DNA of 64,000 bases from an uncultured virus (IMG/VR IMGVR_UViG_3300020122_000176) (Duplodnaviria; Heunggongvirae; Uroviricota; Caudoviricetes), in the IMG/VR virus record IMGVR_UViG_3300020122_000176, one strand, 5' to 3'. The translations under genes were made by a program, and so were the position numbers. Below, piece after piece: positions 452 through 36,078 of this stretch. How positions within the stretch are numbered: position 1 is the stretch's first letter; each line of letters starts with the position of its first letter. A model generated the notes under the pieces. The model was not told the origin of the DNA, searched no databases, and saw nothing but the letters and a program-made list of their open reading frames with translations.

Positions 452-453
452 TG

Positions 454-1764: not shown

Positions 1765-1779
1765 CGCTGGTCCTTTTTG

Positions 1780-3295: not shown

Positions 3296-4773
3296 CTCCC
3301 CTCGTTAACCGGGCTTAAAAGGTCTGGCGGGCGTGCTGCGGGTGCCATGTCCTCAGCGTCGCTAAAGCGTGTAAAGGCTGGCTCAAACCGCGCGCGCGCC
3401 TTGCCAATGCGGTCCATGCGCGCCTTGGTGCTGAAGATCTGCATCCAGCCCTTTTCGCGCTCCATGGCCACGACCCATTCGTTGCGCGCTTTGTTGTCTG
3501 ATGAGGGTGGCTCCTCGCGCTCGAGATAGTAGGACTCGCTGTGCAAAAACCAGATGGCATCGGCATTCTGCTCGATCGCGCTTGCGCCATACAGATCGCT
3601 GTTAATCGGCCGTTTTGAGGGCCTTTTGTTGTAGTCCCGGTTCAAGTGCGCCAGCAGCATGATGGCCGCGTTCATCTCCTTCGCGAGGTCTTTCAGATCG
3701 CTGGTGATCTGCTGTATTTGGTCGCGCTCGTCGAGCCTGGGGTTGGCTGGCTTGATGAAGCGCAGATGGTCGATGATGATCAGCGCAAGCTCGTCGTCAA
3801 TGCGGCGCTGCAAGGCATGCGCGCGTGCTCGCATCTGGGCCACGGAGAGCTTCGGCGTGCTATCGATTCTAACGGCGATATCGTCCATGCCGGCGTGGGC
3901 AAGCATCATCTGCTCGATGTCGGCGGCGCTGACCTTTCCGCGGCGCATGAGGCTGGACGGAATATCGGTGGCATCGGCTACCTGGCGCATGCCGAGTTGC
4001 CAGTCCGCCATCTCGAGGCTGAAGAACAGAACCTGTTTTTTGGCGCCGGGCGCGTCGTCACGATGGCGTCCGTAATCCTGCCCCCGACCATTGGCGACTG
4101 CCGTCATTTGGGCGAAGGCGGACTTGCCCATATTCGGCGCGCCGGCGAGCACGAGCAGATCACTGCGGTAGATGCCGCCAAGCTCGTTGTCGACTGCCAG
4201 AAGCCCCGATGTCAGACAAACCTCGGCCGGGCTGGTGCGGGCATGTTCGGCCTTTTGGATGGCTTCATAGCTTAGATCCCGCAAGGTGATGGCGCCGCGG
4301 CCGGTATCGTGCTTGCGCCCTAGCTCGTAGAGCCGCTCGCTGGCGGCGTCCGTAATGGCCTCTGCAGCGCCAATATCCGCGTCCGTGGCGGGCGAGCCGG
4401 CCAGGGCTACCAAGTCCCGCCCAATCTCCATCAGCTGGCGCCTGGCGCTTAGGGCGCGAAGTGTGGCCGCAAAATCGCGCATGCTGGGAAGTGCCGGCGC
4501 AGCTGCGGCCAGACCGACCAGATAATCGCGCCCCCCGACCTCGGCCAAGCCCGGATCCGCCTTCATGGCCGAATGCAGGGTCAAAGGCGTTACGCCCATG
4601 CGCCGCTTGATGCGGTCGCCAATCATTTCGAAAATCCGCTGGTGAAGGGGATCGTAAAAGTCGTCGGCGCCGAGCACGCCTTCAAGCCTCCAATAGGCAG
4701 CGCCGTCGATTAGAAGCGCGCCAAGCACGGCCTGCTCAAGTTCGACGTTGCAAGGTATGGACTCAGTCGCCAT
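3292..4773 (-). CDS. dnaB: Replicative DNA helicase, DnaB family
   Basis: EQAVLGALL N-domain, Walker A GAPNMGKS, FSLEM, IIIDHL, LYGASAIEQNADAIWFL. Confidence 0.95.
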   Translation of the reverse strand: MATESIPCNVELEQAVLGALLIDGAAYWRLEGVLGADDFYDPLHQRIFEMIGDRIKRRMGVTPLTLHSAMKADPGLAEVGGRDYLVGLAAAAPALPSMRDFAATLRALSARRQLMEIGRDLVALAGSPATDADIGAAEAITDAASERLYELGRKHDTGRGAITLRDLSYEAIQKAEHARTSPAEVCLTSGLLAVDNELGGIYRSDLLVLAGAPNMGKSAFAQMTAVANGRGQDYGRHRDDAPGAKKQVLFFSLEMADWQLGMRQVADATDIPSSLMRRGKVSAADIEQMMLAHAGMDDIAVRIDSTPKLSVAQMRARAHALQRRIDDELALIIIDHLRFIKPANPRLDERDQIQQITSDLKDLAKEMNAAIMLLAHLNRDYNKRPSKRPINSDLYGASAIEQNADAIWFLHSESYYLEREEPPSSDNKARNEWVVAMEREKGWMQIFSTKARMDRIGKARARFEPAFTRFSDAEDMAPAARPPDLLSPVNEGS

Positions 4774-5437
4774 TGGCTTCGAATCGATCGATCTCATTAC
4801 CCCATGACGCCCAGTTCGGCGCGCGGCTGCGAGCGAAAAGTTCGCAGTAGGGACCGTCGAACATGGTCTCGATTCTGGTGCGCGCTTCGTCTGGCTTGCG
4901 GCTGTGTTCGCGGCGTGGCTGGCGGATCGTCCCACCCGGCCACCATTCAATGAAATCGCGCATCGATCGGCTGTTTGTCTCGGTCACATGGCCAAAGAAA
5001 TCGACAGGCTTACGCAGGCGCGGGGTGCCGCGGGTCAGCAGCAGACATGGCTCGAGGTTCTTGCGTGTGCCGTAGCCGGGACCGAAGGCAAATTTACCGG
5101 TCTGGGCGTTGTACTTAATCCACTCCCAAGCGACAGAGGAGTAGATGAGTCCCCAAGCCGAAATAACCGTCGTCCACTGCGGCATCAGAGGCCATGTGAA
5201 CCAGCAGAAAACGGCGCAATCCTTGGCCATAAGCAGCGCCAGCGGCAGCTTGGCGATGTCCTCGATCGGCATGCAGGGATAGTGGTTTATGGCGTTCTTT
5301 TCTTCGCCGGACTCGCTGAAATTTGCGTATAGCCACGGCGGGTCGATATGCAGCACGCGGAAGCCGCTCGATGGCCGTAAGCGCGTCCATTCGTGAGACA
5401 CCCTTTCGAGATCCAGCCTAATAATTCTCTGGCTCAT
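4763..5437 (-). CDS. MT-A70 family adenine methyltransferase
   Basis: DPPW catalytic motif, HSRKP, ELFAR, WGNE. Confidence 0.92.
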   Translation of the reverse strand: MSQRIIRLDLERVSHEWTRLRPSSGFRVLHIDPPWLYANFSESGEEKNAINHYPCMPIEDIAKLPLALLMAKDCAVFCWFTWPLMPQWTTVISAWGLIYSSVAWEWIKYNAQTGKFAFGPGYGTRKNLEPCLLLTRGTPRLRKPVDFFGHVTETNSRSMRDFIEWWPGGTIRQPRREHSRKPDEARTRIETMFDGPYCELFARSRAPNWASWGNEIDRFEANGD

Positions 5438-5600
5438 TTTGCGGCTCCGAATTTGATAGCCCAACGCTCGCGATCGAGCGCCACCTTCTCCTTGCGCCGC
5501 AGCGATTTCTCGCGCTTCGCTTGCTCGCTGAGGGTCAGTTGCTCTGTCTCGAGGCTGTCCTGCAGGACCAGCGTGCATGGATCGAACAGCGCCAGGCAGA
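5434..5600 (-). pseudogene. 3' half of a 104-aa phage gene split by the IS
   Basis: Joins 8242..8087 in frame once the IS and one target duplication are removed. Confidence 0.8.
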
Positions 5601-5674
5601 GGCGATTATGCACTACTTGACTAATTGGGACCATTAGCCTACACTCCTCTCAGAGATTGAGTAGGAATTGCAAA

Positions 5675-6580
5675 ATGTCCAATAAAAACAAGCGCATACA
5701 TCAAATGACCATTTCCGAGTGGGAAAAGGCCTTTCCAGACGAAGATGCATGCTGTGCTTATCTGGTCCGCCATCGCTGGCCGACTGGCGTCTACTGCCCG
5801 CGCTGTGGCGCTACGACCGTCAAAGAGCACGGCACGATGCAATGGAATTGGCTGTGCAATGAATGCTCGCCGTCCGGGACCAACTATCGCTTCAGCCACA
5901 TCACCGGGACGATCTTCGAGAACACCAACAAGCCGCTGCGCGACTGGTTTCGCGTCATTCACCGGATGCTGGTCAGCAAGAAAGGCGTCAGTGCGCTCCA
6001 GATTTATCGCGAAATGGGTTTCGGTAGCTATCGCACTGCTTGGTACATGTGCCATCGCGTTCGTGGCGGGTTGGCGAACGAAGATTTCCGCAAGCTGATG
6101 GGAATTGTTGAGGTCGATGAGACCTACATCGGCGGCAAAGCCAAGAACCGGCACGGCGGACACGACAACACTGGCGGCGGTACAGGCAACAAGATGGTTG
6201 TGATTGGTGCCATCGAACGAAAGGGCAAGGTCGTTGCGAAGGTTCTGAACCGCGTCAGCCATACCGCGATGCAAAGCTTCGTGCATGAGACCGTTTCGAC
6301 CGATGTCAGCTTGCTCGCGACCGACGAACACCGCGCCTACGTCGGGATCGACTACCGTTACAATCATGGTGCCGTGAACCATGCATCCGGCAAGTATGTG
6401 GTCGGCGCGATCCACACCAACACCATCGAAGGCTTCTGGTCGCTGATTAAGCGCGGCGTTGTCGGCACTTATCACAAGGTCAGCCGCAAGTATCTCCCGC
6501 TGTACGTCGCGGAATTTCAGTTTCGATATAACAATCGGCTGAACGAAGACATATTCGGTGAGGCAATTCGCGGGTGCTAG
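5675..6580 (+). CDS. IS1595-family transposase (Zn ribbon + ISXO2-like DDE)
   Basis: CPRCG...CNEC, VEVDETYIGG, TDE, HTNTIEGFWSLIKRG, YVAEFQFRYNNR. Confidence 0.95.
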   Translation: MSNKNKRIHQMTISEWEKAFPDEDACCAYLVRHRWPTGVYCPRCGATTVKEHGTMQWNWLCNECSPSGTNYRFSHITGTIFENTNKPLRDWFRVIHRMLVSKKGVSALQIYREMGFGSYRTAWYMCHRVRGGLANEDFRKLMGIVEVDETYIGGKAKNRHGGHDNTGGGTGNKMVVIGAIERKGKVVAKVLNRVSHTAMQSFVHETVSTDVSLLATDEHRAYVGIDYRYNHGAVNHASGKYVVGAIHTNTIEGFWSLIKRGVVGTYHKVSRKYLPLYVAEFQFRYNNRLNEDIFGEAIRGC

Positions 6581-6678
6581 CATCCTGTCATTAGCCTCCT
6601 GATTCGAGTGTGAGCGGCTAATAAGAGCCCAGCAGCCACGCTCAGAATTGCGGCGATCACGGATGTGAGCACTATCGA

Positions 6679-7422
6679 ATGTGGATCATTTTGCTCATGT
6701 TCGACGGTCTTGGCGCGATCTGGAATTTTTTGGCCGAGAACGCCACCGTTTTGTCGATAGTTGTCACCGCAATAGCTACCACGTTCGTGGCCGTTTTCAC
6801 TGTTGAACTCGCAACCGTTACCGCGCGGTCCGTCAACCTCGCGCGGCAAGAGTTTGACGCCAATCACAGGCCATGGGTGTCCGCTAAGGTAAGCGCGGAC
6901 TCTGACATCATCGTTTCCGGCGATGCGGTGACGATGCATCTCCGAGTCAAACTTAAGAACACTGGAAATTCTCCGGCACTTAACGTCATGCAGACGGCAG
7001 CGATGTTTCCGGGGGATACGGTGAACGTCAACGCTTGGCAGGCCCGCTCCGCTAACTCGCGAGCCAGAACGCAAGACCCCAACGCGCGCGTCGGTTTCAC
7101 TTTGTTTCCCGGTCAATCCCGGACTGTCTCTACCTTTGTTGCTATCAATTTGAATAGCTACGAGGTCGCCAATCTCGACAAAGAAAGACCCGGATGGGCG
7201 GCTTTCATCATGCCCCACGCCTTTGGCTGCGTCACTTACGTTTCCGGTTACGGAACGAAGGGCGAAACGGGCTGGTGCAGCCTGGTTCTCAAGAAGACTC
7301 CTAGCACTAACGGAAATTTTGGGGTCCAAAATATGGGACACGGCATTAGGCGAGATCAGAAAGTCGTCCCGCAGGATGACATCGTGTTTCCTGAACATAT
7401 TACTGGCAACTACGCCAAATGA
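6679..7422 (+). CDS. IS passenger: membrane-anchored protein of unknown function
   Basis: N-terminal TM segments, RPWV motif, NTGNSPA; lies between the IRs. Confidence 0.7.
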   Translation: MWIILLMFDGLGAIWNFLAENATVLSIVVTAIATTFVAVFTVELATVTARSVNLARQEFDANHRPWVSAKVSADSDIIVSGDAVTMHLRVKLKNTGNSPALNVMQTAAMFPGDTVNVNAWQARSANSRARTQDPNARVGFTLFPGQSRTVSTFVAINLNSYEVANLDKERPGWAAFIMPHAFGCVTYVSGYGTKGETGWCSLVLKKTPSTNGNFGVQNMGHGIRRDQKVVPQDDIVFPEHITGNYAK

Positions 7423-7489
7423 TGTCCTCGCCTGAGCTGGCGTGGTGAATGCGCCCTGTCCCCATACGATTAGAAACGCGGAGACCAAC

Positions 7490-7834
7490 ATGGCGGGATA
7501 TTTTGATACCAGTGTGGATCGGACCACGGACGAATTGCTTGAAGCGGTCGTGATTGGCGTAAAGACCGGCATAAACCAAAACAAAATCTCCTTCGCGATA
7601 ACTCCGTTTGCGGTCCTACTGGTCAAACTGAGCCAAGATGCAGAGAAGACCGCCCGAAGAGTTGTGTGCCTGACATGGGCCTTAGTAGCGCTCACGGTCG
7701 CGCTCCTTGGGCTTACTGCCTATCTGGCGTGGCATGAGGCTAATCAGCAAACCAACCAGCACAGCGATCTCAATGCAAAGAGCAGCGCCCAACAGGCACA
7801 GCCCCAGCCAACGCCAATGCCAAAGCAGAAGTAG
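7490..7834 (+). CDS. IS passenger: small membrane protein
   Basis: GGAG RBS; TM helix LTWALVALTVALLGLTAYL. Confidence 0.65.
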   Translation: MAGYFDTSVDRTTDELLEAVVIGVKTGINQNKISFAITPFAVLLVKLSQDAEKTARRVVCLTWALVALTVALLGLTAYLAWHEANQQTNQHSDLNAKSSAQQAQPQPTPMPKQK

Positions 7835-8086
7835 CGCGCCCATCTAGCGCGCTCCCTCTAGAGCAGTTTGTCGATCAGCCTCGCGATCTCTGGAACAAGC
7901 GCAACAATGAGTGCCCCCCAGAGCGGGATGTACCGCTTCCGGAGCGGTCTCAGTTTTTTGCGCGGGCGACTCATGGAGCGAAGGTTGGCCGCCCCGATTG
8001 AACGAAACATTATGACCTTGACTCTCACCCTCATGGAGGGGAGTATAGGTTTCTCTTCCTACATAGTCAAGTAAGGCATAATCGCC

Positions 8087-8242
8087 CAGGCAGACGCTAG
8101 GGCGCGTGTCATACGGATCCTGCGCAAGCGGATCATTGATGGCCTTCGCGAGATCGCCCAAGGTCGTGGCGCGCGTTGCCTTCGTGACACGATCTGTCAC
8201 GGTCACGACTTGGTCGCGACAGGCCCAGAAGCGGTAGGACAT
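8087..8242 (-). pseudogene. 5' half of the IS-interrupted phage gene
   Basis: MSYRFWAC...RPSVCL ends at the target duplication. Confidence 0.8.
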
Positions 8243-8244
8243 GG

Positions 8245-8457
8245 CTATGCCGCGCGTTTGCCGAGTCGCCTGACCTGTGAAATCCGCACGAATGTGGCAG
8301 TGTCACGCCCCGGCAGTCCCATTCGGTGCGCTTTGCCGATTACCATATTGCGCGTGACGCCCTTACCGAGCGTCCTGGCTATCTCAGAGGTCAGCACATC
8401 GTCGCGCCACAGCTGTTCCAGTGCGGTCATGTTCTCATCTGTCCAGGTCCATTTCAT
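8245..8457 (-). CDS. GcrA-family cell-cycle regulator (N-terminal HTH domain only)
   Basis: WTDE....L..LW...TSEIARTLG.GVTRNMVIGKAHRMGL. Confidence 0.88.
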   Translation of the reverse strand: MKWTWTDENMTALEQLWRDDVLTSEIARTLGKGVTRNMVIGKAHRMGLPGRDTATFVRISQVRRLGKRAA

Positions 8458-8508
8458 CGTTGCTACCCTTTTGGCCGTTGGATTGGTCGACTGAGTCGGT
8501 TGAAGTGA

Positions 8509-9000
8509 TCAAGTCGCTTTAGCGCGTCCCAGCAGATCATTTTCAGAGTCGACGACGCGCTCGCGCACCCGAACCAGCACGAAGGCACGACCCTCATGGC
8601 TGTAACGTTTGCGCACGATCAAATCGGAGACTTGGCTATCGTCGATCCAGACCACGTCGTTGAACGCGTCCATGACCAGCTTGGCGCGGTTGTCGAGATC
8701 GGGCTTGGCCGTGCTGTAGAAGCCGGCCGCAGACTCGCATTGCTTGCGAGACCACGAAACCGGCCGCCTCAGCCAGAACTCGATCGTTAATTCCACCGGC
8801 CCTTCGAACTTGCCACTGCCAAACTGTGCGTGGAAGGCGGCAAACGCTAAGCCTTTGATAAGTCGCTCTGTCTTGGCGCTATCGGGATCCGGATAGATGA
8901 ACGCAATGGGCTTGCCAGCGGCGTAGCCAATACGGGTGCGAGGCCGGCCTTTGCCGCCGACCTCCCCGTCGACCTGCAGGACGAATTCGCGCGGCATCAC
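8509..9000 (-). CDS. rusA: RusA-family Holliday junction resolvase
   Basis: GKGRPR, KPDLDNRAKLVMDAFN..VWIDDSQV. Confidence 0.92.
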   Translation of the reverse strand: MMPREFVLQVDGEVGGKGRPRTRIGYAAGKPIAFIYPDPDSAKTERLIKGLAFAAFHAQFGSGKFEGPVELTIEFWLRRPVSWSRKQCESAAGFYSTAKPDLDNRAKLVMDAFNDVVWIDDSQVSDLIVRKRYSHEGRAFVLVRVRERVVDSENDLLGRAKAT

Positions 9001-9545
9001 TCCACCAGCGCGAGCTTGCCTTTACCCTTGAGCGCGGCCTTTGTGGCGCCGTCGATCGGCATGTTCTCCAGCTGGGCCTCGGCATAGCTTTCTTCGTACT
9101 GCCGTGCCGCGGGGCTGCCCTTCATCCACGGATGGTCCTTGTCGCGGCCGGCCTTGCCATCGGCAAAGCCCTTGACCTTGGCCTCTGCGACCGCGTCTTC
9201 GAACTTGGTTTGATGGACGTCGATCTGCACCGGCGCGCCGCCCTCCTGGAGCACCAGGCTTAGCTGCGTGATGTAGGATTTCTGCTTCAGCGCATCGCCA
9301 CTCATGAGCCGCATGCCGTCGCGCAGCGCCTTCACGTTGACGCCAGCCTCGTCAGCCACTTTGTAGGCGTGGCTCAGTTCCTTGTTCGCCTTGTCGGCCT
9401 TGGCCTTGGCGATGGCGATGACGGTCATGTGATGCTTCAGATCCCGGGGGGCGGGAATCAGCATCGCTTCGCCAGTCTCGGGATTGACGTCAGTGGCGTC
9501 GCGCTTGTTCTTTTTGCCTCGCCCCGTCTTTTTTCCTTTTGCCAT
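8997..9545 (-). CDS. GapR (DUF2312)-like DNA-binding protein with C-terminal extension
   Basis: AYKVADEAGVNVKALRDGMRL resembles the GapR core; basic N-terminus. Confidence 0.5.
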   Translation of the reverse strand: MAKGKKTGRGKKNKRDATDVNPETGEAMLIPAPRDLKHHMTVIAIAKAKADKANKELSHAYKVADEAGVNVKALRDGMRLMSGDALKQKSYITQLSLVLQEGGAPVQIDVHQTKFEDAVAEAKVKGFADGKAGRDKDHPWMKGSPAARQYEESYAEAQLENMPIDGATKAALKGKGKLALVE

Positions 9546-9818: not shown

Positions 9819-9890
9819 TTTGTAGCCCGGGTGCTGGTTTTCCGCAAGAAAAGTCTTTTTTCTTGCAGGAAAGCCCAAAACGGCTAAACT
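9819..9890. promoter_or_regulatory. Back-to-back divergent promoters with two 15-bp operator-like sites
   Basis: Minus strand TTGCGG-17-TACAAA (leaderless cro); plus strand TTGCAG-16-TAAACT; inverted sites 9838-9852 and 9858-9872. Confidence 0.65.
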
Positions 9891-9919
9891 CTGGGTTGGT
9901 AGCAGAAGGACCGATTCGA

Positions 9920-10421
9920 ATGGCTTGGGACCAAGGGCCAGTCTATATGCCGCACAATCGCGCGCTCAGAAGCGTGGCCCGCATCTTCCCGATCTGGATG
10001 TGGATCGTGCTCACAGTCGGCGGCACCATCGCTGGCTGGTTTCTTATCCCCCTGTTTTTCGAGACGGTGCAGATGCTGGCGCACGCGATCGGCTGGGTGC
10101 TGGCGTGAACGACCGTGTCGCATTCTGTCTGCTCGCATGCGTGGGCTTTGGCACCCTCGCCATTCAGGGCTTCCTACTGCGCATGAGCATTCCGGTGACG
10201 ACGATTGCCGCTGCCGTCACTATTGCGCTTGCTGGCGCGGCATGGGCGTCGTGGGGCAAGCGATGAAGCGCGAGTTCTATATTTTGACGATGATCGCATT
10301 GGGCTGCTTCATGATGGCTGGTGGCATCCGTGCTCACGACGGCGAGGGCTGGACCAGCTTCGCCTTCGTGTTGCTTGGTCTGGCGCTGACGTGGAGCGCT
10401 TCGCGGCGGATGCCCAAATGA
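9920..10421 (+). CDS. Three tandem small membrane proteins (9920-10108, 10105-10266, 10263-10421)
   Basis: Hydrophobic 50-60 aa ORFs with GTGA/ATGA overlaps. Confidence 0.55.
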
Positions 10422-10825
10422 TACGCACGCCCACGCCCCGCGCGAAATTATACGCCTGGCACACGGCCGCGCTCACCGCCCAGCGCCGCAAGATCACGGG
10501 ACCGGCGATTCACGACGATGCGCAGCCAGGCTGGTTCAAGCGCAAGCTGGTGAAGGGCGGCCCATTCGTAGCCGTCGAAATCTGGATGGCGCAGCATGTC
10601 GAGGACGGCGAGTTGGTCGGGCCTGAGACGTTGCGCTGCGAGATCGATGGTGTCGCTGCAGATCCGCACGACCAGTGGACTTATGTGGCCGACAATCCCA
10701 TCAGCGAAGCCGAGTTTCGACACATGCGCGCGGACGCGCGCTGGGTCAAAGCGCACGCACCGAACGAACCGAATGCAAACCCGCGCGAGCCCATCGACTT
10801 GGTGCGCGCGCCGATACCGTTCTGA
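10418..10825 (+). CDS. Conserved alphaproteobacterial phage protein
   Basis: PGWFKRKLVKGGPFVAVEIW motif; ATGA overlap. Confidence 0.7.
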   Translation: MIRTPTPRAKLYAWHTAALTAQRRKITGPAIHDDAQPGWFKRKLVKGGPFVAVEIWMAQHVEDGELVGPETLRCEIDGVAADPHDQWTYVADNPISEAEFRHMRADARWVKAHAPNEPNANPREPIDLVRAPIPF

Positions 10826-10838
10826 AAGGACCAATGAC

Positions 10839-11804
10839 ATGACAGAAGACAGCGGCGGCTTTGGGCTAGCGACAGAAGCGCCGGGCATCGGCCACAACAT
10901 TCCACCGAACGAGTTCAAGCTTCCCACTTCAGACGTGTTGCGCGCGCTGCTACGCGAGCGCCATGCGGAACTGCTTAAGAAGGCCGTCGACCTCGTCGAC
11001 AGCGAGTCCCGCATCCCGCGCAACGAGAAGAACGAACTCGACTGCCCGGACGACGGCTGGGAGAAGAAGCTGTCGGACGTGGTGCGCCTCATCCAGGGCA
11101 CGGTGAAAGCGCTCGACACCGCGCGCACCGCCGAGAAACAGGTCTACGATGATCTGGCGGCGTCGATCCATGGCCTGTTCCGCGAGCGCATGGACGCTTT
11201 GGTCGATCCGAATGCGTCTCGATCACGGCCTGACGGCGCGCTCAAGGGCCGCATCGAACGCGCGCTGACCCGATACAAAGTTCGGAAAGAAGACGCCGCG
11301 CGCAAGGCCGCGCAAGAGGAAGCCGATCGTCAGCGCGCACTCGAGGAGCAAGCACGCCAGCGCCAGGCCGAGGCTGATGCAGAGGCTCAGCGTCTGGCTG
11401 AAGAGGCCGCGCGCAAACGCAAGCCAGAGACGAAAGCCGCCGCCGCTGAGGCTGCACAGGCCGCTGCGCAAGCTGCTGCCGAACTTGCCGCGAGAGCCAC
11501 GACTGCAAGCGAAGACCGCGCTAAGGCAGAGGAAGCTGCGAGCGCGCCAGCCGCCGATCTCACGCGCACGCGCGGCAGTCTCAGCATGTCGAGCCTGCGC
11601 GAGTTTCTGGACTTCCGCGACGTGGCGCACGCCAAGCTGCCGGCGATCACGCTGTGGGCATACGTGACAGCGGATGCAAAAGAGAAGGCGCTTCGTGCTT
11701 ACATGATGGCGAATTCGGATCCCATCAAAGCCGGGCTCAAGAACAACGTGCAGCCGCTGGCTGGTGTGACGTTTTTCATAAACCGCGGGACGAATGTCAG
11801 ATGA
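10839..11804 (+). CDS. Coiled-coil phage protein (Gam/Gp157-like by context)
   Basis: GIGHNIPP start, long Ala/Glu/Arg coiled coil, upstream of the putative SSAP. Confidence 0.6.
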   Translation: MTEDSGGFGLATEAPGIGHNIPPNEFKLPTSDVLRALLRERHAELLKKAVDLVDSESRIPRNEKNELDCPDDGWEKKLSDVVRLIQGTVKALDTARTAEKQVYDDLAASIHGLFRERMDALVDPNASRSRPDGALKGRIERALTRYKVRKEDAARKAAQEEADRQRALEEQARQRQAEADAEAQRLAEEAARKRKPETKAAAAEAAQAAAQAAAELAARATTASEDRAKAEEAASAPAADLTRTRGSLSMSSLREFLDFRDVAHAKLPAITLWAYVTADAKEKALRAYMMANSDPIKAGLKNNVQPLAGVTFFINRGTNVR

Positions 11805-13350: not shown

Positions 13351-13700
13351 GCAGGGAGACTGTGAGGGAGACACTGGCGCGCAACGACATTTACGGGTCG
13401 CTGCACAGAGAGTCGTTCTATGAGGATGACGCGCTAAGCGACGTCATCGCGTGGCTCAGCGGCCTTCTGGCAGAGGTTCCCGAAAACCTTCGCGGCACTG
13501 CCAAGGTCAATGTCGAAAGCGTGGGTGGCTACGAAGGCGAGCATCACGCGGAAATCCATGTTTACTATGATCGCCCCGAAACAGATGAGGAGATGGACGC
13601 CCGCATTTTTCGGGAGGGCCGGGAGAAGGCTGCAAGTGAGTTACACGAGCGGCGCCTTCTTGAAGCGCTGAAACGGAAATATGAAAAGGGCCCCAGCTAA
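13347..13700 (+). CDS. Hypothetical protein
   Basis: TTGA overlap; DRPETDEEMDAR motif. Confidence 0.6.
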   Translation: MSRETVRETLARNDIYGSLHRESFYEDDALSDVIAWLSGLLAEVPENLRGTAKVNVESVGGYEGEHHAEIHVYYDRPETDEEMDARIFREGREKAASELHERRLLEALKRKYEKGPS

Positions 13701-13945
13701 TGCGGGGCGCTAACCCCAAGGCCGTCAGCGACATCGACCGAGCAATCGGGCGGGCCATCCAGGCCGCCCGGGCCCGGCGTGGCATGACCCAAGGCGATCT
13801 CGGCGCGAAGGTCGGCGTCAGCCATGCGCAGATCGACAAGTACGAGCGGGGCATGAACCGGATCAGCGCCGGAAAGCTCTGCGAGGTGGCGGCATGGCTG
13901 AATGTCCGGCCGAGCAGCCTGCTTCCCAGCGTGACCGTCTACTGA
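13700..13945 (+). CDS. XRE-family HTH regulator
   Basis: IGRAIQAAR..RGMTQGDLG.KVGVSHAQIDKYERGMNRIS. Confidence 0.9.
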   Translation: MRGANPKAVSDIDRAIGRAIQAARARRGMTQGDLGAKVGVSHAQIDKYERGMNRISAGKLCEVAAWLNVRPSSLLPSVTVY

Positions 13946-14854: not shown

Positions 14855-16614
14855 AGACGATCTTCGGCATCAAGGGCTTTGCGCTCACCGAATATGCGAT
14901 CAGCGCCAACGCGGTTCTAGGCATCCGCGACAGCGGAAAGACCTACACAGCGACCGCTGCCGCCGAGCAGCTGTTCGATGCCGGGATCCCGTTCGTTGCG
15001 CTTGATCCTATCGGCGTGTGGCGCTGGATGCGTGTGCCTGGCCACGGCCGGGGCTACCCCGTCGTCGTCGCCGGTGGCCGTGCCGGCGATTTGCCCCTCA
15101 CAACAAAGAACGCGGGTGCCATACTCAGGGCGGCCATGGAATCAGGCGTCAGCCTCGTGATCGATCTGTTCACGATGGACCTGTCGAAAAGCGACTGGCG
15201 CAAGATCGTTCGGGAGTGCGTCGAGATTTTGCTGCATGAGAATGCCGACTTCGGATTGCGCCATGTCTTTATCGAAGAGGCCGCCGAGTTCGTGCCGCAG
15301 CGCCCGATGGACATGCTGGTGTACAGCGCCGTCGAGAAGCTCGTGCGCATGGGCGGCAACAGCAAGCTCGGCTGCACACTGATTAATCAACGCAGCGCCG
15401 ATCTCAACAAGTCCGTCCTCGAGCTTTGCGCCAATGTCTTCGTCCACCGGCAGAAGGGCAAGAACACGCTGCTCGACCTGAAAAAATGGTTCACGCTGCT
15501 CGACCTGTCCGATGCCGAGGAAAAGCGCATCGCGGAGAGCCTGCCGAACCTGAAGTCTGGCGAGTGCTGGGCGCTGCTCAACGATGTCGCCAAGCCGGTG
15601 CTGCTGAAAGTGCCGGCCAAGAACTCGCTCCACCCGGACCGCCGTGCCGCCACAGCCACGCCCGCCGAGATCGCAAAGCGCCAACCAGTGCCGGCCGACA
15701 AGTTCGTGGCGGCGATGAAGGTCAAGCTGGCCGAAAAAGCGCCCGCGCCCAAAGCCCCAGCGATTCGGTCGGATAAAGTTCCGGCGTTCCCTGCTGGAGG
15801 CGGTTCGGACAAGGACTTTTTCGCCCATCTGCGCAAGACCCGCGAGACGGCCGTTGAGGAAACCCGTCAGGCCGCTCTAGGACGCGTTGCCGAGGCCAGG
15901 GAAGCCGCCCGCAGCGCGATCGATTCCGTGGCGGCCCAGATCGCTTCCGACCTGTGTAGGGCACTGCTGCCCCGTTTTGACGCCTTGGAGAAGCAGATCA
16001 GGGGCGAGCGCGTGAAACCGCTCACGGCTGCAGATCTTCGGACCGAGGCGACTAAGCCGGGAGTCGTTACCAACGCCAGCCACGCAGTCGAGATCACGCT
16101 GAAACCCCTTGGCCAGCGAGCACAGGCAAGCCGTGGCGGCGACGAATCACTCTCTGGCTCACAGCGCCAACTGCTCGGCGCCTTGGCCTGGTGGGCTAGA
16201 ATGGGCCACGACGCCCCTAGTCGACCGCAGATCGCGGCCATCGCTGGCTGGAAGATCACCGGTGGACACCTCGGCAACGTCATCGGCAGCCTCAAGACAG
16301 CCGGGCTGGTCGACTACCCGAATCAGGGATCCGTCGCGCTTACGAGCGCTGGCACGGTCGCGGCGCCCGAGCCGGATGCGTCGCTCACCCTCCACGACGG
16401 TATTCGCGGCGTGCTGTCCGGATCCCAGCGCCAGATTTTCGAGTGCCTGCTGGCGAACGGCTACGCGTTGTCACGTGAGCAGATTGCGGATGCCTGTGGC
16501 TGGGACTCTGGCGGCGGACATCTTGGCAACGTGATCGGCTCGCTACGCACCCTTGAGATCGTCACTTACCCATCAAGGGGCCAAGTCGAGCTTCAAAACT
16601 GGGTGACAGAGTGA
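14851..16614 (+). CDS. HerA/FtsK-superfamily ATPase with two C-terminal winged-helix repeats
   Basis: GIRDSGKT, ALDPIG, FIEEAAEFVPQ, INQRSA; duplicated LSGSQRQ...GGHLGNVIGSL. Confidence 0.85.
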   Translation: MKTIFGIKGFALTEYAISANAVLGIRDSGKTYTATAAAEQLFDAGIPFVALDPIGVWRWMRVPGHGRGYPVVVAGGRAGDLPLTTKNAGAILRAAMESGVSLVIDLFTMDLSKSDWRKIVRECVEILLHENADFGLRHVFIEEAAEFVPQRPMDMLVYSAVEKLVRMGGNSKLGCTLINQRSADLNKSVLELCANVFVHRQKGKNTLLDLKKWFTLLDLSDAEEKRIAESLPNLKSGECWALLNDVAKPVLLKVPAKNSLHPDRRAATATPAEIAKRQPVPADKFVAAMKVKLAEKAPAPKAPAIRSDKVPAFPAGGGSDKDFFAHLRKTRETAVEETRQAALGRVAEAREAARSAIDSVAAQIASDLCRALLPRFDALEKQIRGERVKPLTAADLRTEATKPGVVTNASHAVEITLKPLGQRAQASRGGDESLSGSQRQLLGALAWWARMGHDAPSRPQIAAIAGWKITGGHLGNVIGSLKTAGLVDYPNQGSVALTSAGTVAAPEPDASLTLHDGIRGVLSGSQRQIFECLLANGYALSREQIADACGWDSGGGHLGNVIGSLRTLEIVTYPSRGQVELQNWVTE

Positions 16615-17839: not shown

Positions 17840-18001
17840 CTAGTCGCCGCTTGCATCAGCGGCCATTTTCCATCCGTCTTCTACTCCTCGCTCATACCCA
17901 ATTTGAGCGCATTGCAGAAGAAGAAAATTCAAGTCTTTTTGATCCTCAACATCGGCGAGAAATGCTTCTGGTAGCAGCGCCCTGAGTTCTTCATCAGTCA
18001 T
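17840..18001 (-). CDS. Hypothetical protein
   Basis: GAGG RBS before MTDEELRALL. Confidence 0.5.
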   Translation of the reverse strand: MTDEELRALLPEAFLADVEDQKDLNFLLLQCAQIGYERGVEDGWKMAADASGD

Positions 18002-18009
18002 TTCTGGCC

Positions 18010-18243
18010 TCAATCTTTCGACTCGGGAGGTTGGGGCAGTGGCATCCAGAATTTCGGCTCCTGCTTCTTCAAACTTTCGCCAATTCCTATCCAAGTTCGG
18101 CTGGGGAGGTCAGCTTCGACCGGCGCATGGCAGTAAGCGATGAGAACCGTATTTTCATACCGCATCTCCCTTGCCACATGGCGACGGAAGGGCACCAAGA
18201 CGCGCTCATTGATTGGGGCGGTTGAAATTGGTTGCCAGTCCAC
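18010..18243 (-). CDS. DUF551-like phage protein
   Basis: WQPISTAP...FWMPLPQPP signature. Confidence 0.75.
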   Translation of the reverse strand: MDWQPISTAPINERVLVPFRRHVAREMRYENTVLIAYCHAPVEADLPSRTWIGIGESLKKQEPKFWMPLPQPPESKD

Positions 18244-18251
18244 TTGCGGCC

Positions 18252-18728
18252 TCAACTGACTGGTTCGGGAGTTGGCTTGAACCCGCTGATCATCACAAAG
18301 CCGCTGCCCGCCATGTCGCGCGCCTCTTTCCCTTTGAAGCCGAGCGTCGCTGGGGTGATGACGCCCCACAGACCGAGCACTTTGCCGAGCGCGAAGAGTT
18401 GGAAGGCCGCGCCTTGGTCGCCAATCTCAGCGCCGACCTCGATGTAGGACGGGCCGCCAGCAAGGCGGTCAGGCTGCGGATAGGTCTTGAGGATCGAAAT
18501 GAGTTCGGCTTTGTGCTTTTCCGCGCCCGCCTTATCCACGCCGATTACAAGGAACTCAAGATCGACCTTCTCGATTCCGCTTTTGGCTTCGCTCTCGTGC
18601 GGCATCATATCGATGGTCGTGACCCGCACATTTGGCAGGTCTTCCTCGGTCACAACCTCGCCTTTTTTGCGAAGCTGGACTGTCGTCTCGTTGAGGATTT
18701 CGTATAGGCGGTCAACGTTCATGGTCAT
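18252..18728 (-). CDS. Conserved hypothetical phage protein
   Basis: GPSYIEVGAEIGDQGAAFQLFALG..LGLWGVITP motif. Confidence 0.65.
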   Translation of the reverse strand: MTMNVDRLYEILNETTVQLRKKGEVVTEEDLPNVRVTTIDMMPHESEAKSGIEKVDLEFLVIGVDKAGAEKHKAELISILKTYPQPDRLAGGPSYIEVGAEIGDQGAAFQLFALGKVLGLWGVITPATLGFKGKEARDMAGSGFVMISGFKPTPEPVS

Positions 18729-18742
18729 TTCCGGCCTCTACG

Positions 18743-18887
18743 TTACGCCGCGAGCGCGGCTGGTTTGAGTGATCCCCATTGATCGGCCATAGCCTCGGCA
18801 ATGCCAACTAGCGTGCGGCTGCGCTCTTTCCAGCGGGAAGGCGCTGCGAACGATACCGGAGAACTCACAGGCGATCAGAACTCTCAT
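18743..18887 (-). pseudogene. Internally deleted phage DNA methyltransferase-family gene
   Basis: N-terminus MRVLIACEFSGIVRSAF abuts the out-of-frame C-terminus RWKERSRTLVGIAEAMADQWG. Confidence 0.8.
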
Positions 18888-18906
18888 TCCGCTTGTATAG
18901 CACCGC

Positions 18907-18935
18907 TTGACCGGAATTACAATAGCGGTTATAAG
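18907..18935 (+). promoter_or_regulatory. Sigma70-like promoter for a leaderless mRNA
   Basis: TTGACC-17-TATAAG, 6 nt before ATG 18942; overlapped by ACCGCT/AGCGGT inverted repeat. Confidence 0.6.
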
Positions 18936-18941
18936 AATCTT

Positions 18942-19463
18942 ATGCCTAAGAAAGTTTCTGTTATTAAAGCGACACGCGGCTATGCGCGGGACGAGAATGA
19001 CTCCAAAAGGCTCAAGGCGGCAGGCGTGAATACGATCTACAGGGCCGACAAGGGCGAGACGCTGGACAGGTTCAGAATGCGTAACGGCGAGTTCCTTGGC
19101 GTGGTGGATGGTCTCAGAGCCTTCGGCGGGCGGCGCGAGATCGGTAAAGCCGTCAAGCTCATCCATTCCTGGGGCTGCACGGTGATCGACGCCGAGACGG
19201 GGCTGCAAAGCCGCCAGGACGGCGTTGAGATGATGCGCCAAGCCATTGCGCCCAAGCTCAAGCCTGGACGTGCCGAGGAACTGCAAATCCTCTCAGCCAA
19301 GAGCCGCACGGACGATGGCCGTCTCAGCAAGCGCAAGGCCGAAATGATCTGGCGCAATCGCGGCTACACGGTCGAGGAAACTGTGGAACTAAGCGGTTGG
19401 CCTCAAGCGACGGCCTACCATGTGTTCGGGCCAAGGTTTAAGAAGCGGAAAACGGAAGATTAG
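18942..19463 (+). CDS. Degenerate serine resolvase-like protein with C-terminal HTH
   Basis: GYARDE (GYARVS lacking the Ser), LKAAGV..IY, ETVELSGWPQATAYH HTH. Confidence 0.6.
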   Translation: MPKKVSVIKATRGYARDENDSKRLKAAGVNTIYRADKGETLDRFRMRNGEFLGVVDGLRAFGGRREIGKAVKLIHSWGCTVIDAETGLQSRQDGVEMMRQAIAPKLKPGRAEELQILSAKSRTDDGRLSKRKAEMIWRNRGYTVEETVELSGWPQATAYHVFGPRFKKRKTED

Positions 19464-19816
19464 GAGCAATGAAGCAATGACAACCCGCATTTGGATTGAG
19501 GCTGCGGACGGCGAAAGAGCAGTGGCAGAGCTTATTGCGCAGATTGTTGAGGACGATGGATCAGTGACGATTACCGAAATGATTGAGCTTGTCCCCGGAG
19601 GATTAACCGCTATGTCTATGATCGCGTGCAGGTTGTCCTTCGCGCCAAACCAAAATCGAGGAAAGTCTATTTCGATGAAGTGCATTCACTAGCAGACTTC
19701 CGACGCTGGCTGGAAGCGCACTTGCCGCCGCCTCGCGCGGGAACAAACTCGATATTTTGGCTAAACCCGAAAGACGTACTGGAAAAATTTGATCGCGCAG
19801 TCGAACCAAAATGAGC

Positions 19817-19849
19817 AAAAAGAAACGCCGCCCAGTTGCCTGGACGGCG
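19817..19849 (-). terminator. Rho-independent terminator
   Basis: CGCCGTCCAG-GCAA-CTGGGCGGCG followed by TTTCTTTTT. Confidence 0.8.
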
Positions 19850-19905
19850 CTTCCTGCGTGGTAGCAACGACGCGCTGAAAGGACCAACTAACGGCACGCC
19901 GCGAA
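19817..19905 (-). ncRNA. Candidate ~90-nt small RNA with anti-SD seed
   Basis: Promoter TTGCCC-17-TACGGT (19938-19910) and intrinsic terminator with no ORF between; contains UUGGUCCUUUCAG. Confidence 0.55.
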
Positions 19906-20006
19906 TCAAACCGTAGTGCGTGCAACCAATCTGGGCAAGAGAGCCCTTTTGTCTTGTGTGCTTCACACCCCGAGAGCATCTTTCGGATTCCAGTGAGAGA
20001 AGTGTC

Positions 20007-21359
20007 GTGAAAATTGCCTGCGTGACGACTTGCCGAGGCCGACTAGATCATCTTCGTGCCACCCTGCCGGACAATCTTCGCGAACTAGATCGCGACGCCG
20101 TGATCGTGCTGCTCGACTACAACGACCAGGACGGCCTCGCTGGCTACATTGAGCGCAAGCACGCCGATGACCTCGAGTCCGGCAAGCTGGTCTACTACCG
20201 CAATAGCGACGCGCCGCGTTTCTTCATGGGCCATGCCAAGAACCAGGCGCATCGCTGTGCCGCGCAGGAAGGCGCAGACATCCTCGTCACGCTCGACGCC
20301 GACAACTACATGGGCGCTGGCTTCGTCCCCTATGTGCGCAGACGTTTCGAGCGCGAGCACGATCTATCGTTCCTGTGCCCCGACTTCGATGCCTTGCCGC
20401 CGCCAGGCAAGCGCTTCAATCGTCAAAATCCGCTGCGGCTCGGACGGGGCTTCGCTGGCAGACTGGCCATACGGATAAACGATTTCTTCAAGGCTGGCGG
20501 CTACAACGAGGCCTTCGACACATGGCGCGGCGAGGACATCGACCTGCTCGCCCGTCTCGACCGGATAGGGCTCAAGCGTGGCGCCATCAATCCGGCGTTC
20601 CTGAACGCTATCGCACACAGCGCTGCAGTCCGCTTCAAAGAATACCCAGAGGCGCGCAAGTATGAGCGCGAGGACGTCTACGCGATCACCGAGCACGCGC
20701 ACGACACCGTGGTCAACTATGGCAACGTCGGATGCGGGATTGTCACGCGCAATTTCGACGACACCCTGATACCCCTTGAGCCGATAGCGACCCGGATATT
20801 CGGCATAGGCATGCAGCGTACCGGCACCACAAGCCTGCACGAGGCGTTCAAGAGATTCGGCTTCGACGCCGGGCACTGGGAGTCCGCTGGCTGGGCGCGC
20901 GCCATCTGGCAGGAGATGAACCGCTGGGGCAGCTCGCGCACGCTCGAACAACGCTATGCGCTCACCGACAACCCGATTCCCGTGCTTTACAAGAAACTCG
21001 ACGAGGCATACCCAGGCTCGAAGTTCATTCTGACTGTGCGCGAGGAGACGGAGTGGCTCAAAAGCGTCGCCAAGTTCTGGACGCACGAAGGCAATCCGCG
21101 CCGCTGGACGTGGGACGTCGACGGCTTCTCCCACAAGATGCACGGCATTGTTTACGGCACGATCAAATTCGACGCGCTGACTTTCCTCGAGCGCTATCGC
21201 AGGCACAATGACGAGGTCACGCGCTACTTCAACGGCAGGCCGGATTTCATGCGCCTAGAAATTAAGAGCGACACATCAATGGCTGGCTTGTGCCGCTTCC
21301 TGAACCAGCCAGCGACCAACCGGAAGTTCCCCCATCAAAACAAAGGAGAGAGCAGATGA
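20007..21359 (+). CDS. Glycosyltransferase (GT2/GT7-like) - sulfotransferase fusion
   Basis: TCRGR..L, LDAD, GGYNEAF..WRGEDIDL; then IFGIGMQRTGTTSL PAPS loop, YPGSKFILTVRE..W..S. Confidence 0.88.
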   Translation: MKIACVTTCRGRLDHLRATLPDNLRELDRDAVIVLLDYNDQDGLAGYIERKHADDLESGKLVYYRNSDAPRFFMGHAKNQAHRCAAQEGADILVTLDADNYMGAGFVPYVRRRFEREHDLSFLCPDFDALPPPGKRFNRQNPLRLGRGFAGRLAIRINDFFKAGGYNEAFDTWRGEDIDLLARLDRIGLKRGAINPAFLNAIAHSAAVRFKEYPEARKYEREDVYAITEHAHDTVVNYGNVGCGIVTRNFDDTLIPLEPIATRIFGIGMQRTGTTSLHEAFKRFGFDAGHWESAGWARAIWQEMNRWGSSRTLEQRYALTDNPIPVLYKKLDEAYPGSKFILTVREETEWLKSVAKFWTHEGNPRRWTWDVDGFSHKMHGIVYGTIKFDALTFLERYRRHNDEVTRYFNGRPDFMRLEIKSDTSMAGLCRFLNQPATNRKFPHQNKGESR

Positions 21360-22165
21360 AATTCGGCAAAAAGCCTGCACGTCCAGGCGCGATGAAGCTT
21401 AGGCTGAGGGACTACATCAACATATCCGTCCTGCCTGCGCCAAACTGGAACAACTTCGGCTACGAATACAAAGTCACCGAGCCTTGGGAAATGCTCGGCA
21501 ACGACTTTTACGGCGATTGCGTGGAAGCTGGCGCAGCACACGAGACGATGCTGCTCAACGCCGAAGCCGGCAAGACCGTGACATTCACGCGCGAGACCGT
21601 GCTGTCGGACTACAGCGCGGCGACCGGTTTCAATCCGAACAATCCGAACACCGACCAGGGCACCGACATGGTGAGCTATGCGTCGTACCGTCGGAAGGTC
21701 GGCGTGATCGACGCGAGCAGCGTTCGCCACAAAGTGGCGGCCTATCTCGCCATCACGCCAGGCGATCTTGAGGAACACCTCATCGCAGCCAATCTGTTTG
21801 GCGCGGTCGGAATTGGCTTCGAGTGCCCCAGTAACACTATCGCGCAGTTCGATAGCGGCGAGCCGTGGTTCTGCGTTCCCGGCGCCACTACTAACGGCGA
21901 GGGCCATTATGTTCCGATGGTATCGCGGCGCAAGGGCATGCTGCGCACCGTAAGCTGGGGCCGCTTCCAGTTCATGAAAGACGGGTTCTTCGAGACGTAC
22001 AACGACGAGAGCGTCGTCTATCTGAGTACCGAGTTTCTGTCGGGTGGCGTGTCGCTCAACGGCTTCGACCTAGCGCATTTGCAGGCCGATCTTGCGCTGC
22101 TGGGACCGACGTCAGGTCCGACGAAGGGCGAGCGCCCGACAAAGGCGGACAGGCGCAAGGGCTAA
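21356..22165 (+). CDS. Papain-like cysteine peptidase
   Basis: GNDFYGDCVEA (Cys), GHYVP (His), VSWG; ATGA-coupled to the GT gene. Confidence 0.7.
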   Translation: MKFGKKPARPGAMKLRLRDYINISVLPAPNWNNFGYEYKVTEPWEMLGNDFYGDCVEAGAAHETMLLNAEAGKTVTFTRETVLSDYSAATGFNPNNPNTDQGTDMVSYASYRRKVGVIDASSVRHKVAAYLAITPGDLEEHLIAANLFGAVGIGFECPSNTIAQFDSGEPWFCVPGATTNGEGHYVPMVSRRKGMLRTVSWGRFQFMKDGFFETYNDESVVYLSTEFLSGGVSLNGFDLAHLQADLALLGPTSGPTKGERPTKADRRKG

Positions 22166-35122: not shown

Positions 35123-35544
35123 GGGTCCGTGCTCGCTGTCGCCTGCGTGGCCTCCTTCTCGTGTTCCTTGTTGCCGCGCTGGGCGCGAACGAGAAACATC
35201 CCGACTGGGTCAAGGAGTTGCAGATAGCCGTCTTCCATCAGGATGTCGCCAACGGCCTGGGGACTTTCCGGCGCACCCTTCTTACCGCGCAACATCCAGA
35301 AGATCGCGGTGGCCAACTCACTCATCTTGATTTCCGAAGCGTTTGGCGGGCGCTCCGCGACTTTAACGCCGGCGAGCAGCGCGCGCATGCCGAGCATGCG
35401 GGCTGGCTGGTCGGTGGCGGCCTCGATGTTTGCGATGATCTCGAATGTGGGCCGCACGGAGAACGTGCTGCCATTTAGCTTGATCTCGACTTCCTGGCGT
35501 GCGGATTCGACCTTCGACTTCGCGTCTGCAACAGCGTCAGTCAC
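35119..35544 (-). CDS. Tail assembly chaperone (G-like)
   Basis: Between the tail tube gene and TMP; RPTFEIIANIE. Confidence 0.8.
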   Translation of the reverse strand: MTDAVADAKSKVESARQEVEIKLNGSTFSVRPTFEIIANIEAATDQPARMLGMRALLAGVKVAERPPNASEIKMSELATAIFWMLRGKKGAPESPQAVGDILMEDGYLQLLDPVGMFLVRAQRGNKEHEKEATQATASTDP

Positions 35545-35987: not shown

Positions 35988-36078
35988 GCGCGCAACTCCT
36001 TCGAGGGGCTTTAGCGTCTCACGACGCGACGTGCGAAGCAGTCATATACCGGAATGTCGGGACAAGCGAAAGCGACGC

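Follow-up and report, generated by a model that had tools for sequence, protein, structure and literature searches.

A candidate stand-alone small RNA complementary to early ribosome-binding sites in a phage genome from soil metagenomes

The window analysed here, a 64-kb phage genome derived from soil metagenomes (IMG/VR record IMGVR_UViG_3300020122_000176), contains a gap of about 190 nt, between a plus-strand gene ending at 19814 and another starting at 20007, that appears to house a small gene on the opposite strand. An early-type promoter at 19939-19910 would drive a non-coding RNA of approximately 86-91 nt ending at a terminator at 19854-19817, and the 18-nt loop of its 5' hairpin would pair with the ribosome-binding site (RBS) regions of a subset of the early mRNAs. 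The putative targets share an unusual extended RBS, (CTGA)AAGGACC(A/G)A, unlike the AAGGAG or GGAGG of the late genes, and pairing that covers the Shine-Dalgarno (SD) sequence and the spacer up to the start codon would block initiation, the RNA acting as a brake on, or a shut-off of, the early genes. A trans-acting anti-RBS small RNA (sRNA) that represses a set of early genes is the best-supported reading of the sequence and the folding models, and we give it a probability of roughly 0.55; the bare existence of a minus-strand RNA appears somewhat more probable than that, and the repression of the five genes named below somewhat less. The evidence consists of observed features of the locus, namely, its sequence anatomy, the strand specificity of its fold, its membership in a promoter motif, the strength of its terminator, and its complementarity to distant sites.

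On the minus strand, TTGCCC (19938-19933) is followed, after a 17-nt spacer, by TACGGT (19915-19910), and the parts of the predicted gene are arranged as follows.

19910-19939, minus: predicted promoter of the sRNA, with -35 CTTGCC at 19939-19934, a 17-nt spacer, and -10 CTACGG / TACGGT
19817-19906, minus: predicted sRNA of about 86-91 nt, with the start placed at 19907-19902 by its spacing from the -10 element and the 3' end in the U tract 19825-19817
19867-19902, minus: hairpin 1, a 9-bp stem (19902-19894 with 19875-19867, three G·U pairs) and an 18-nt loop (19893-19876)
19875-19887, minus: seed UUGGUCCUUUCAG, whose first 6 nt, UUGGUC, form an apical hexaloop
19817-19854, minus: predicted intrinsic terminator, a GC-rich stem with a GCAA tetraloop (19839-19836) and a U tract

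The promoter, seed, hairpin, and U tract had all been proposed in an initial annotation of this sequence, and each was found on the minus strand where that annotation had placed it. For hairpin 1, the minimum free energy and centroid structures concur and remain unchanged whichever of four trial 5' ends is used; the 18-nt loop holds 12 of the 13 seed bases, and each base of UUGGUC is unpaired with a probability of at least 0.99 for all four ends. The loop displays UUGGUCCUUUCA(G), and, past a short linker, comes the terminator hairpin, in which the 5' arm (19850-19840) and the 3' arm (19835-19826) are followed by TTTCTTTTT at 19825-19817 (RNA tail UUUCUUUUU). Scanning both strands for a stable hairpin with a T-rich tail yielded 24 candidate terminators (9 plus, 15 minus), the strongest of which is the one at 19822 on the minus strand (-26.3 kcal/mol); the runner-up (-21.2 kcal/mol), at 22210 on the plus strand, closes the 20007-22165 operon. 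The approximately 2.5 kb upstream of the 19822 terminator hold no minus-strand protein gene. The minus-strand RNA 19915-19810 folds at -48.4 kcal/mol (z -4.34, with none of 200 shuffles as good), compared with -31.9 kcal/mol for its plus-strand complement (z -0.85, with 38 of 200 shuffles as good), an asymmetry that arises because three G·U pairs of hairpin 1 and one of the terminator turn into C·A mismatches on the plus strand. From this arrangement, we infer transcription and its start position.

The gap holds no convincing open reading frame (ORF). The minus-strand ORFs that cross it (19603-19887, 19667-19966, and 19761-19979) pass through the terminator and have codon-usage scores of -0.37, -0.24, and -0.27, respectively, against +0.3 to +0.5 for real genes, and, therefore, we take the gap to be non-coding. 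The predicted RNA has several of the features generally expected of a trans-acting sRNA, namely, a predicted promoter of its own, an intrinsic terminator, no coding capacity, and an accessible complementary seed. A search of the whole window against Rfam (release 15), one of the checks that the initial annotation had named, gave no match at the gathering threshold, either to the C4 antisense RNA, if this release includes it, or to any other family, the best sub-threshold match being the Caulobacter sRNA CC2171 (15.4 bits vs 75, E 0.41), and the putative sRNA belongs to no catalogued Rfam family.

The promoter resembles those in front of several early genes. The pattern CTTG[AC]N-N16-17-CTANNN was written from three matches, those fronting gene 9920, gene 62611, and the sRNA, where CTTGC-N-CTA was seen on reading the intergenic regions; when it was sought on both strands of the 64 kb, six matches were found against 3.2 expected from Markov shuffles, of which three are, accordingly, independent.

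5616-5644, plus: early-promoter match
9862-9889, plus: early-promoter match, before gene 9920
62555-62582, plus: early-promoter match, before gene 62611
9848-9820, minus: early-promoter match
8071-8043, minus: early-promoter match
19939-19911, minus: early-promoter match, that of the sRNA

All six are intergenic and each is oriented toward a transcription unit, and since only about 7% of the window is intergenic by the gene calls of this analysis, such a placement is unlikely to come about by chance. We regard the six as a candidate set of early promoters of this phage, with CTTGAC/CTATAT-like hexamers that may resemble those of alphaproteobacterial promoters.

The case for trans action comes from the complement of the seed. 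The 13-mer CTGAAAGGACCAA occurs exactly three times in the window, at 842-854 (minus), 10822-10834 (plus), and 19875-19887 (plus), just as the initial annotation had it, where the expectation is far under one. A count against expectation, another of the checks named there, bore this out: with up to two mismatches allowed, there are five matches vs 0.83 expected, a number that none of 100 shuffles reached. Only nine distinct 13-mers have at least three copies in the window, and two of the nine fall inside the 90-nt locus. The shorter matches that had been noted before ATG 1764 (1768-1776, minus) and ATG 62611 (62600-62608, plus), as well as in a tandem array at 2306-2353 (minus), are also real. 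Duplexes were computed between the 19-nt loop and the initiation regions of the 101 called genes plus two alternative starts (n=103), and the putative target sites are these.

10822-10838, plus: RBS of the exonuclease-like gene 10839-11804; 13/13 complementary, duplex -24.0 kcal/mol
842-854, minus: site 4 nt before the in-frame ATG 837; 13/13 complementary, duplex -22.0 kcal/mol
62595-62608, plus: RBS of the small gene 62611-62862; 14-bp duplex including two G·U pairs, -23.8 kcal/mol (-21.3 for the 14-mer alone)
1767-1776, minus: weaker target, RBS of the gene 1546-1764; 10 bp, 9 Watson-Crick and 1 G·U, -19.2 kcal/mol (-13.9 for the site alone)
9905-9914, plus: weaker target, RBS of the small gene 9920-10108; 10 bp, two of them G·U, -17.5 kcal/mol (-13.8 for the site alone)

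At 10839, whose product matches the phrog_10477 exonuclease (E 2.2e-5), the modelled duplex continues from the 13 bp through four further pairs, with one bulged G of the sRNA, to the base preceding the AUG; the wobble pairing of an adjacent CGU with the AUG that had been envisaged earlier was not recovered in this model. The TGA stop of the ORF upstream of 10839 falls inside the 13-mer. At 62595, both departures from the 13-mer (C to T and A to G) are transitions that keep G·U pairing, and there is an additional C-G pair; such departures are expected of RNA-RNA pairing and not of a DNA-binding protein, the signature being a small one that would arise by chance in about 1 of 9 cases. Genes 62611 and 9920 are each the first gene behind one of the early-type promoters (62555-62582 and 9862-9889, respectively). 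An RBS of the AAGGACC type precedes the starts 837, 1764, 9920, 10839, and 62611, and AAGGAACC precedes 11995 and 16777, all of these being early genes; the late genes use AAGGAG or GGAGG, and the AAGGACC type is limited to the early regions. The motif ends 4, 4, and 3 nt from the ATG for the copies at 10822, 842, and 62595, respectively, and 4-7 nt before 1764 and 9920, varying with where the end of the motif is placed. Thus, of the trans-acting anti-SD sRNA that had been proposed for this locus, the stand-alone, non-coding anatomy on the minus strand and the looped anti-RBS seed can be read from the sequence, whereas pairing in cells and the sign of the effect, that is, repression, are what we infer.

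The gene in which ATG 837 lies has a composite structure of its own. The ORF 454-1143 (minus) joins part of phrog_19667 (a 64-residue family; residues 36-75) to a KTSC domain (residues 123-176), and an intact RBS with ATG 837 lies between the two parts, this ATG opening the KTSC part. Either two genes have been fused in frame or the ORF has an internal start.

Several observations weigh against an anti-RBS sRNA. Its -10 element, TACGGT, is the weakest of the six, in that the fifth position of CTAxAx is G instead of the A of the five other matches, and a generic sigma-70 scan flagged no promoter before the sRNA. The folding model places 3 of the 13 seed bases in weak pairs inside the loop. The 842-854 site lies inside a continuous ORF and may be a relic junction instead of a working RBS. 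Across the genome, duplexes of -16 kcal/mol or better are found in 14 of the 103 initiation regions vs 84 of 3408 gene-interior windows, but shuffled loops of the same C/U-rich composition (n=200) give a mean of 4.8 such initiation regions with a maximum of 14, equal to the observed number, and the best energy of a shuffled loop, -25.4 kcal/mol, beats the real -24.0 kcal/mol; two regions without the motif, at the starts 5634 (minus, -20.4 kcal/mol) and 13700 (plus, -18.7 kcal/mol), also score well. Taken over the regulon as a whole, the enrichment is, therefore, only borderline, and it is the exact 13-mer matches that carry the argument. Furthermore, the core of the seed, AAGGACCAA, equals the unit of a conserved heptamer array in the replication-initiator gene, which opens the way to a reading at the level of DNA, and searches of phages, IMG/VR, the JGI metagenomes, and the records of relatives turned up no homologue of the locus.

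The searches behind this last statement covered both the locus and its neighbours. A blastn search with 18000-22000 against the phage collection returned no match, and neither did a scan of viral contigs for exact 18-mers; the same scan of metagenome contigs returned two matches, which we dismissed as chance because their surroundings are AT-rich, unrelated, and without any blastn similarity to the window. Relatives of the glycosyltransferase-sulfotransferase gene that starts at 20007 were found at two loci, both with a different upstream gene and with no such element, and those of the 158-aa protein encoded at 18252-18728 at nine loci, where the similarity is confined to the gene itself; for the 10839 protein and the 18942-19463 protein, the number of relatives was 0 in each case. 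Of eleven other records examined, none encodes the initiator. In DNA runs from four other soil samples, the contigs of this phage agree with the window letter for letter wherever they reach the region (0 other letters), save for one indel in the run X3, and other short pieces in the soil runs, with 5-6 differences, were set aside as they look like other organisms; the gap in the X2 contigs at 19825-19981 carries no evidential weight. The X3 indel, at 19598-19605, has a net length of +3 (4 bases in, 1 out) and is in frame for whichever of the ORFs there is real.

In the DNA-level alternative, the initiator or some other DNA-binding protein recognises AAGGACCAA as its unit, the single copies, including 19875-19887, are sites in duplex DNA, and there is no regulatory RNA. 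The foundation of this reading is the array, which shares the 9-mer AAGGACCAA with the complement of the seed and has counterparts in related phages.

2306-2353, minus: tandem heptamer array GGACCAA/AAGGACC, about 7 copies with a period of 7, inside the replication-initiator gene 1780-2766
L017 4380-4430, L018 2269-2300, L019 2870-2912, L020 4375-4410, L021 827-860: arrays in relatives

The same array is found at the same place in each of the five viral contigs whose similarity to the initiator is confined to its N-terminal 150 residues (54-71% identity), and is absent from a sixth relative (L022) that matches the C-terminal part only. It sits in the linker-coding part of the gene and is co-inherited with the N-terminal domain, the pattern expected of iterons bound by that domain, and has the predicted form of an iteron-type origin. 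Because the array is kept with relatives of the N-terminal domain and missing from the C-terminal-only relative, it is most simply read as a probable set of origin iterons to which the N-terminal domain of the initiator would bind. An iteron origin inside the initiator gene is the arrangement of lambda O, and the arrays of this family probably mark origins with unusually short, 7-bp iterons. The tandem matches in the initiator mRNA that the initial annotation had listed are, accordingly, present but not best explained as targets of the sRNA, and the identity of the seed core with the heptamer had escaped it. The number of AAGGACCA copies in the window, 11 where about one is expected, also favours recognition in DNA. 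However, exact identity runs four bases (CTGA) past the heptamer unit in all three copies of the 13-mer; the five gene-associated copies are sense-oriented and 4-7 nt from the ATG, which is the behaviour of an RBS and not of an operator; and the departures at 62595 are compatible with G·U pairing. Moreover, the array-bearing relatives have no gene-start copies within 4 kb on each side, and the whole records L017-L021 have no exact GAAAGGACCAA (with one mismatch, there are five matches in three of the five records, two of them inside arrays). The minus-strand promoter, hairpin, and terminator would be left unexplained as well, and we consider this alternative unlikely. A 9-mer match to some part of the 13-mer is expected about 2.4 times by chance in 128 kb, and the overlap between seed and iteron may thus be no more than coincidence.

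The remaining alternatives concern what the hairpin is for and which strand is at work. The hairpin and U tract could be a terminator or insulator only, blocking antisense or late read-through into the plus-strand genes, with the 13-mer being a relic gene start or a recombination scar. This would suit a region between differently sourced modules: the relatives of the glycosyltransferase-sulfotransferase gene have other neighbours, the 158-aa gene is common to nine other phages but its flanks are not, the GC content is lower at the gap (0.563), and short conserved junction sequences are a known substrate of phage mosaicism. Yet one would not expect a relic to occupy the middle of a loop closed by a 9-bp stem that only the minus strand can form, nor to lie directly behind a motif common to the other early promoters of the phage, and the plus-strand terminator at 22210, between the 20007-22165 operon and the late operon, leaves little minus-strand read-through to be stopped; this explanation, too, strikes us as improbable. 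If it is instead the plus strand that works, a read-through RNA, either the 3' tail of 19477-19814 or the 5' leader of 20007-21359, would offer the motif as a decoy or operator for a CUGAAAGGACCAA-binding factor, for example, a translational repressor protein, that acts on the mRNAs of 10839 and 837. The orphan copy does have the same sense as the flanking genes, the lack of an early-type plus-strand promoter before 20007 makes read-through likely, and the cold-shock-domain protein of the phage (16696-16983) could bind RNA; but on the plus strand the fold does not outdo shuffled sequences (z -0.85), the motif has no start codon after it at RBS distance, and it is the minus strand that bears the U tract, the G·U pairs, and the promoter motif, so that we hold a plus-strand element to be very unlikely. 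Finally, a real minus-strand RNA might mainly pair over its full length with plus-strand read-through, triggering processing or termination in the stretch that separates the 19477-19814 genes from the glycosyltransferase-sulfotransferase operon, with the RBS matches being secondary. Any plus-strand transcript across the gap would be perfectly complementary to the whole RNA, and the gap divides a low-GC module from the 20007-22165 operon, but neither the exact 13-mer identity of the loop with two distant RBSs nor the shared extension in the early RBS class would be accounted for. As the principal function, such cis-antisense action seems quite improbable; as an additional one, it is compatible with, and not opposed to, an anti-RBS sRNA.

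The closest parallel to the motif of the window, a suggestive one, appears to be the start associated sequence (SAS), with the related ESAS, of Cluster K mycobacteriophages. According to passages in Pope et al. 2011 (PMC3203893), the SAS is a 13-bp asymmetric sequence, located 3-7 bp ahead of non-structural gene starts and conserved beyond the SD core, and one orphan SAS, in the opposite orientation, is present in four K1 phages; whether RNA or protein binds it is left open there. In passages of later papers, its role is still 'not known' in 2024 (PMC11373665) and 'requires further experimental verification' in 2025 (PMC12699233), and a full-text literature search joining 'start associated sequence' with 'sRNA' found no paper. 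The motif in the window and the SAS are alike in being asymmetric 13-bp sequences that include the SD core and are conserved past the reach of pairing with 16S rRNA, and in standing a few bases upstream of the ATG of non-structural genes only (3-9 bp by the Cluster K definition, within which the window copies fall). In both, the motif sometimes contains the stop codon of the preceding gene, a subset of the copies stands behind a promoter with an inverted repeat (in the window, 9847-9889 and 62555-62582), and one orphan copy, away from gene starts, is found in a hairpin loop. Unlike the motif of the window, the Cluster K motif is GGGATAGGAGCCC, another sequence in phages of another host phylum, and has 11-19 copies per genome, whereas the window has two exact gene-associated copies and 3-5 degenerate ones; the Cluster K hairpin, moreover, lacks a defined promoter or terminator. 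As the window does not contain the consensus GGGATAGGAGCCC in 11-19 copies, its motif is, by sequence, an analogue of the SAS and not a member.

In the Cluster K phage Anaya (JF704106), the orphan SAS lies at 59870-59882, in a 385-nt gap, and, on the gene-sense strand, the anti-SAS CCUCCUAUCC caps a long hairpin as its apical loop; two hairpins are conserved there, and this is the second.

JF704106 59800-59930 (L032 29801-29931): the hairpins at the orphan SAS of Anaya, matched by 137 other records

An alignment of 13 of the 138 matching records, picked down the ranking for diversity, supports both hairpins. Over their 29 pairs, 95.2% of the cells are paired and 8 pairs have double compensatory changes among the 13 aligned; none of 500 shuffles had values as high, and controls slid along the alignment pair in 37-46% of the cells. 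In our own tally of the pairs, G·U makes up about one cell in eight, favouring the gene-sense strand. The Anaya-type orphan hairpin is, thus, a candidate anti-SAS RNA. Its reach would be limited, however, because the loops of Ekdilam and Amgine have drifted (CCTCCTTCCCC and CTTCCCTTCCC, respectively) with the SAS staying GGGATAGGAGCCC, and because, in the passages cited above, Pope et al. report the orphan for K1 phages only (PMC3203893), four of them; an anti-SAS RNA cannot be the whole explanation of the SAS. Covariation of seed and target, which was sought in two Amginevirus phages, failed in both, the loop having drifted and the SAS being unchanged.

Phage RNAs that act at phage RBSs have precedents, as do single factors that act on many early mRNAs. 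The c4 antisense RNA of P1/P7 and the sar RNA of P22 are short phage RNAs that block translation at a phage RBS, each controlling one nearby locus: c4 is processed from the operon of its own target and controls icd-ant, and sar is a true cis-antisense RNA. The putative RNA of the window would share with them small size, phage origin, and a hairpin-borne complement of a phage RBS, but has its own predicted promoter and terminator, is separated from its best targets by 9-20 kb, and would address several unlinked genes on both strands. In this last respect, it resembles RegA of T4, which binds the initiation regions of many early mRNAs and shuts off their translation, with the difference that RegA is a protein and the factor proposed here a base-pairing RNA. 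Among bacterial sRNAs, RsaE/RoxS and the hairpins of Staphylococcus aureus RNAIII have C/U-rich apical loops that pair with SD sequences through seeds of 4-8 nt; these RNAs belong to the host and are conserved from one genus to another. Like them, the RNA of the window would come from a gene standing by itself, carry its seed in a loop, end at an intrinsic terminator, and occlude the SD sequences of several mRNAs; it differs in the length of the match (13-17 nt), in being phage-encoded, and in being aimed at the genes of the phage itself.

If an anti-RBS sRNA is indeed made here, it would be the RNA counterpart of T4 RegA, a stand-alone phage sRNA matching a family of unlinked early RBSs, and the window would provide the cleanest stand-alone example of anti-RBS action, with its own promoter and terminator and with unlinked targets on both strands. 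It would also provide a concrete mechanism for RBS-embedded repeats that are conserved beyond the SD core, such as the SAS. A broader and rather doubtful conjecture is that phages commonly run 'anti-RBS RNA regulons', in which early genes carry a private extension of the SD sequence and one RNA loop is its mirror image; this might explain the Cluster K SAS, and, given that the seed has matches in the origin heptamers of the initiator mRNA as well, early-gene translation might conceivably be tied by this RNA to the initiation of replication. The Cluster K parallel puts the idea into a cultivable, genetically tractable system with published RNA-seq.

A second repeated 13-mer touches the same locus. 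No 13-mer other than GCACGCCGCGAAT reaches four copies in the window; these lie at 19894-19906 (plus), 16402-16414 (minus), 37877-37889 (minus), and 47402-47414 (minus), and one of these copies is the 5' arm of hairpin 1. Two of the others lie within late minus-strand mRNAs, are complementary to the sRNA, and both read His-Ala-Ala-Asn. As this sequence is the paired 5' arm of hairpin 1, we did not adopt it as a second seed.

The window is organised into a minus-strand late operon headed by the large terminase (60360-62120) and the portal (58848-60344) and extending down to 22512; minus-strand replication genes at 1-9545, which include a DnaB-like helicase, a methyltransferase, RusA, and the initiator (1780-2766); and a plus-strand early operon from 9920 to about 16980. 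Around the gap, the gene calls and their codon-usage scoring are the following.

18252-18728, minus: gene of 158 aa, scored as real
18939-19463, plus: gene scored as real
19477-19692, plus: gene scored as weak
19626-19814, plus: gene scored as doubtful
20007-21359, plus: gene call for a glycosyltransferase-sulfotransferase fusion

The last of these fuses a glycosyltransferase to a sulfotransferase (Sulfotransfer_4, E 2.5e-29), and the relatives of its protein, at 50-59% identity, are encoded in different gene contexts by two other complete phage contigs (L002 3001-4293 and L003 3001-4335); the gene may be a moron that modifies the cell surface. A scan of genome contigs for the host yielded only four contigs of metagenome-assembled genomes, of discordant taxa, and no tRNA genes were found in the window.

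The two promoters in front of the first genes 9920 and 62611 have a further feature in common. The only two TTTTCT/AGAAAA palindromes of the window, at 9847-9863 and 62562-62576, overlap the divergent early promoters 9820-9889 and the promoter 62555-62582, respectively, and look like repressor operators. An XRE-type helix-turn-helix gene is located at 13700-13945.

Another IMG/VR fragment, G001, comes from the same phage, with 100% identity over 28571-64000 of the window and 99.98% over 1-5727, and stops short of the sRNA locus. In this fragment, 2351 bases that are absent from the window (G001 35431-37781, or L005 15431-17781) separate position 64000 from position 1. They contain a 426-aa ORF (15140-16420 of L005, minus) that, by a reading of its translation alone, appears to fuse a ParB-like domain to a DNA methyltransferase.

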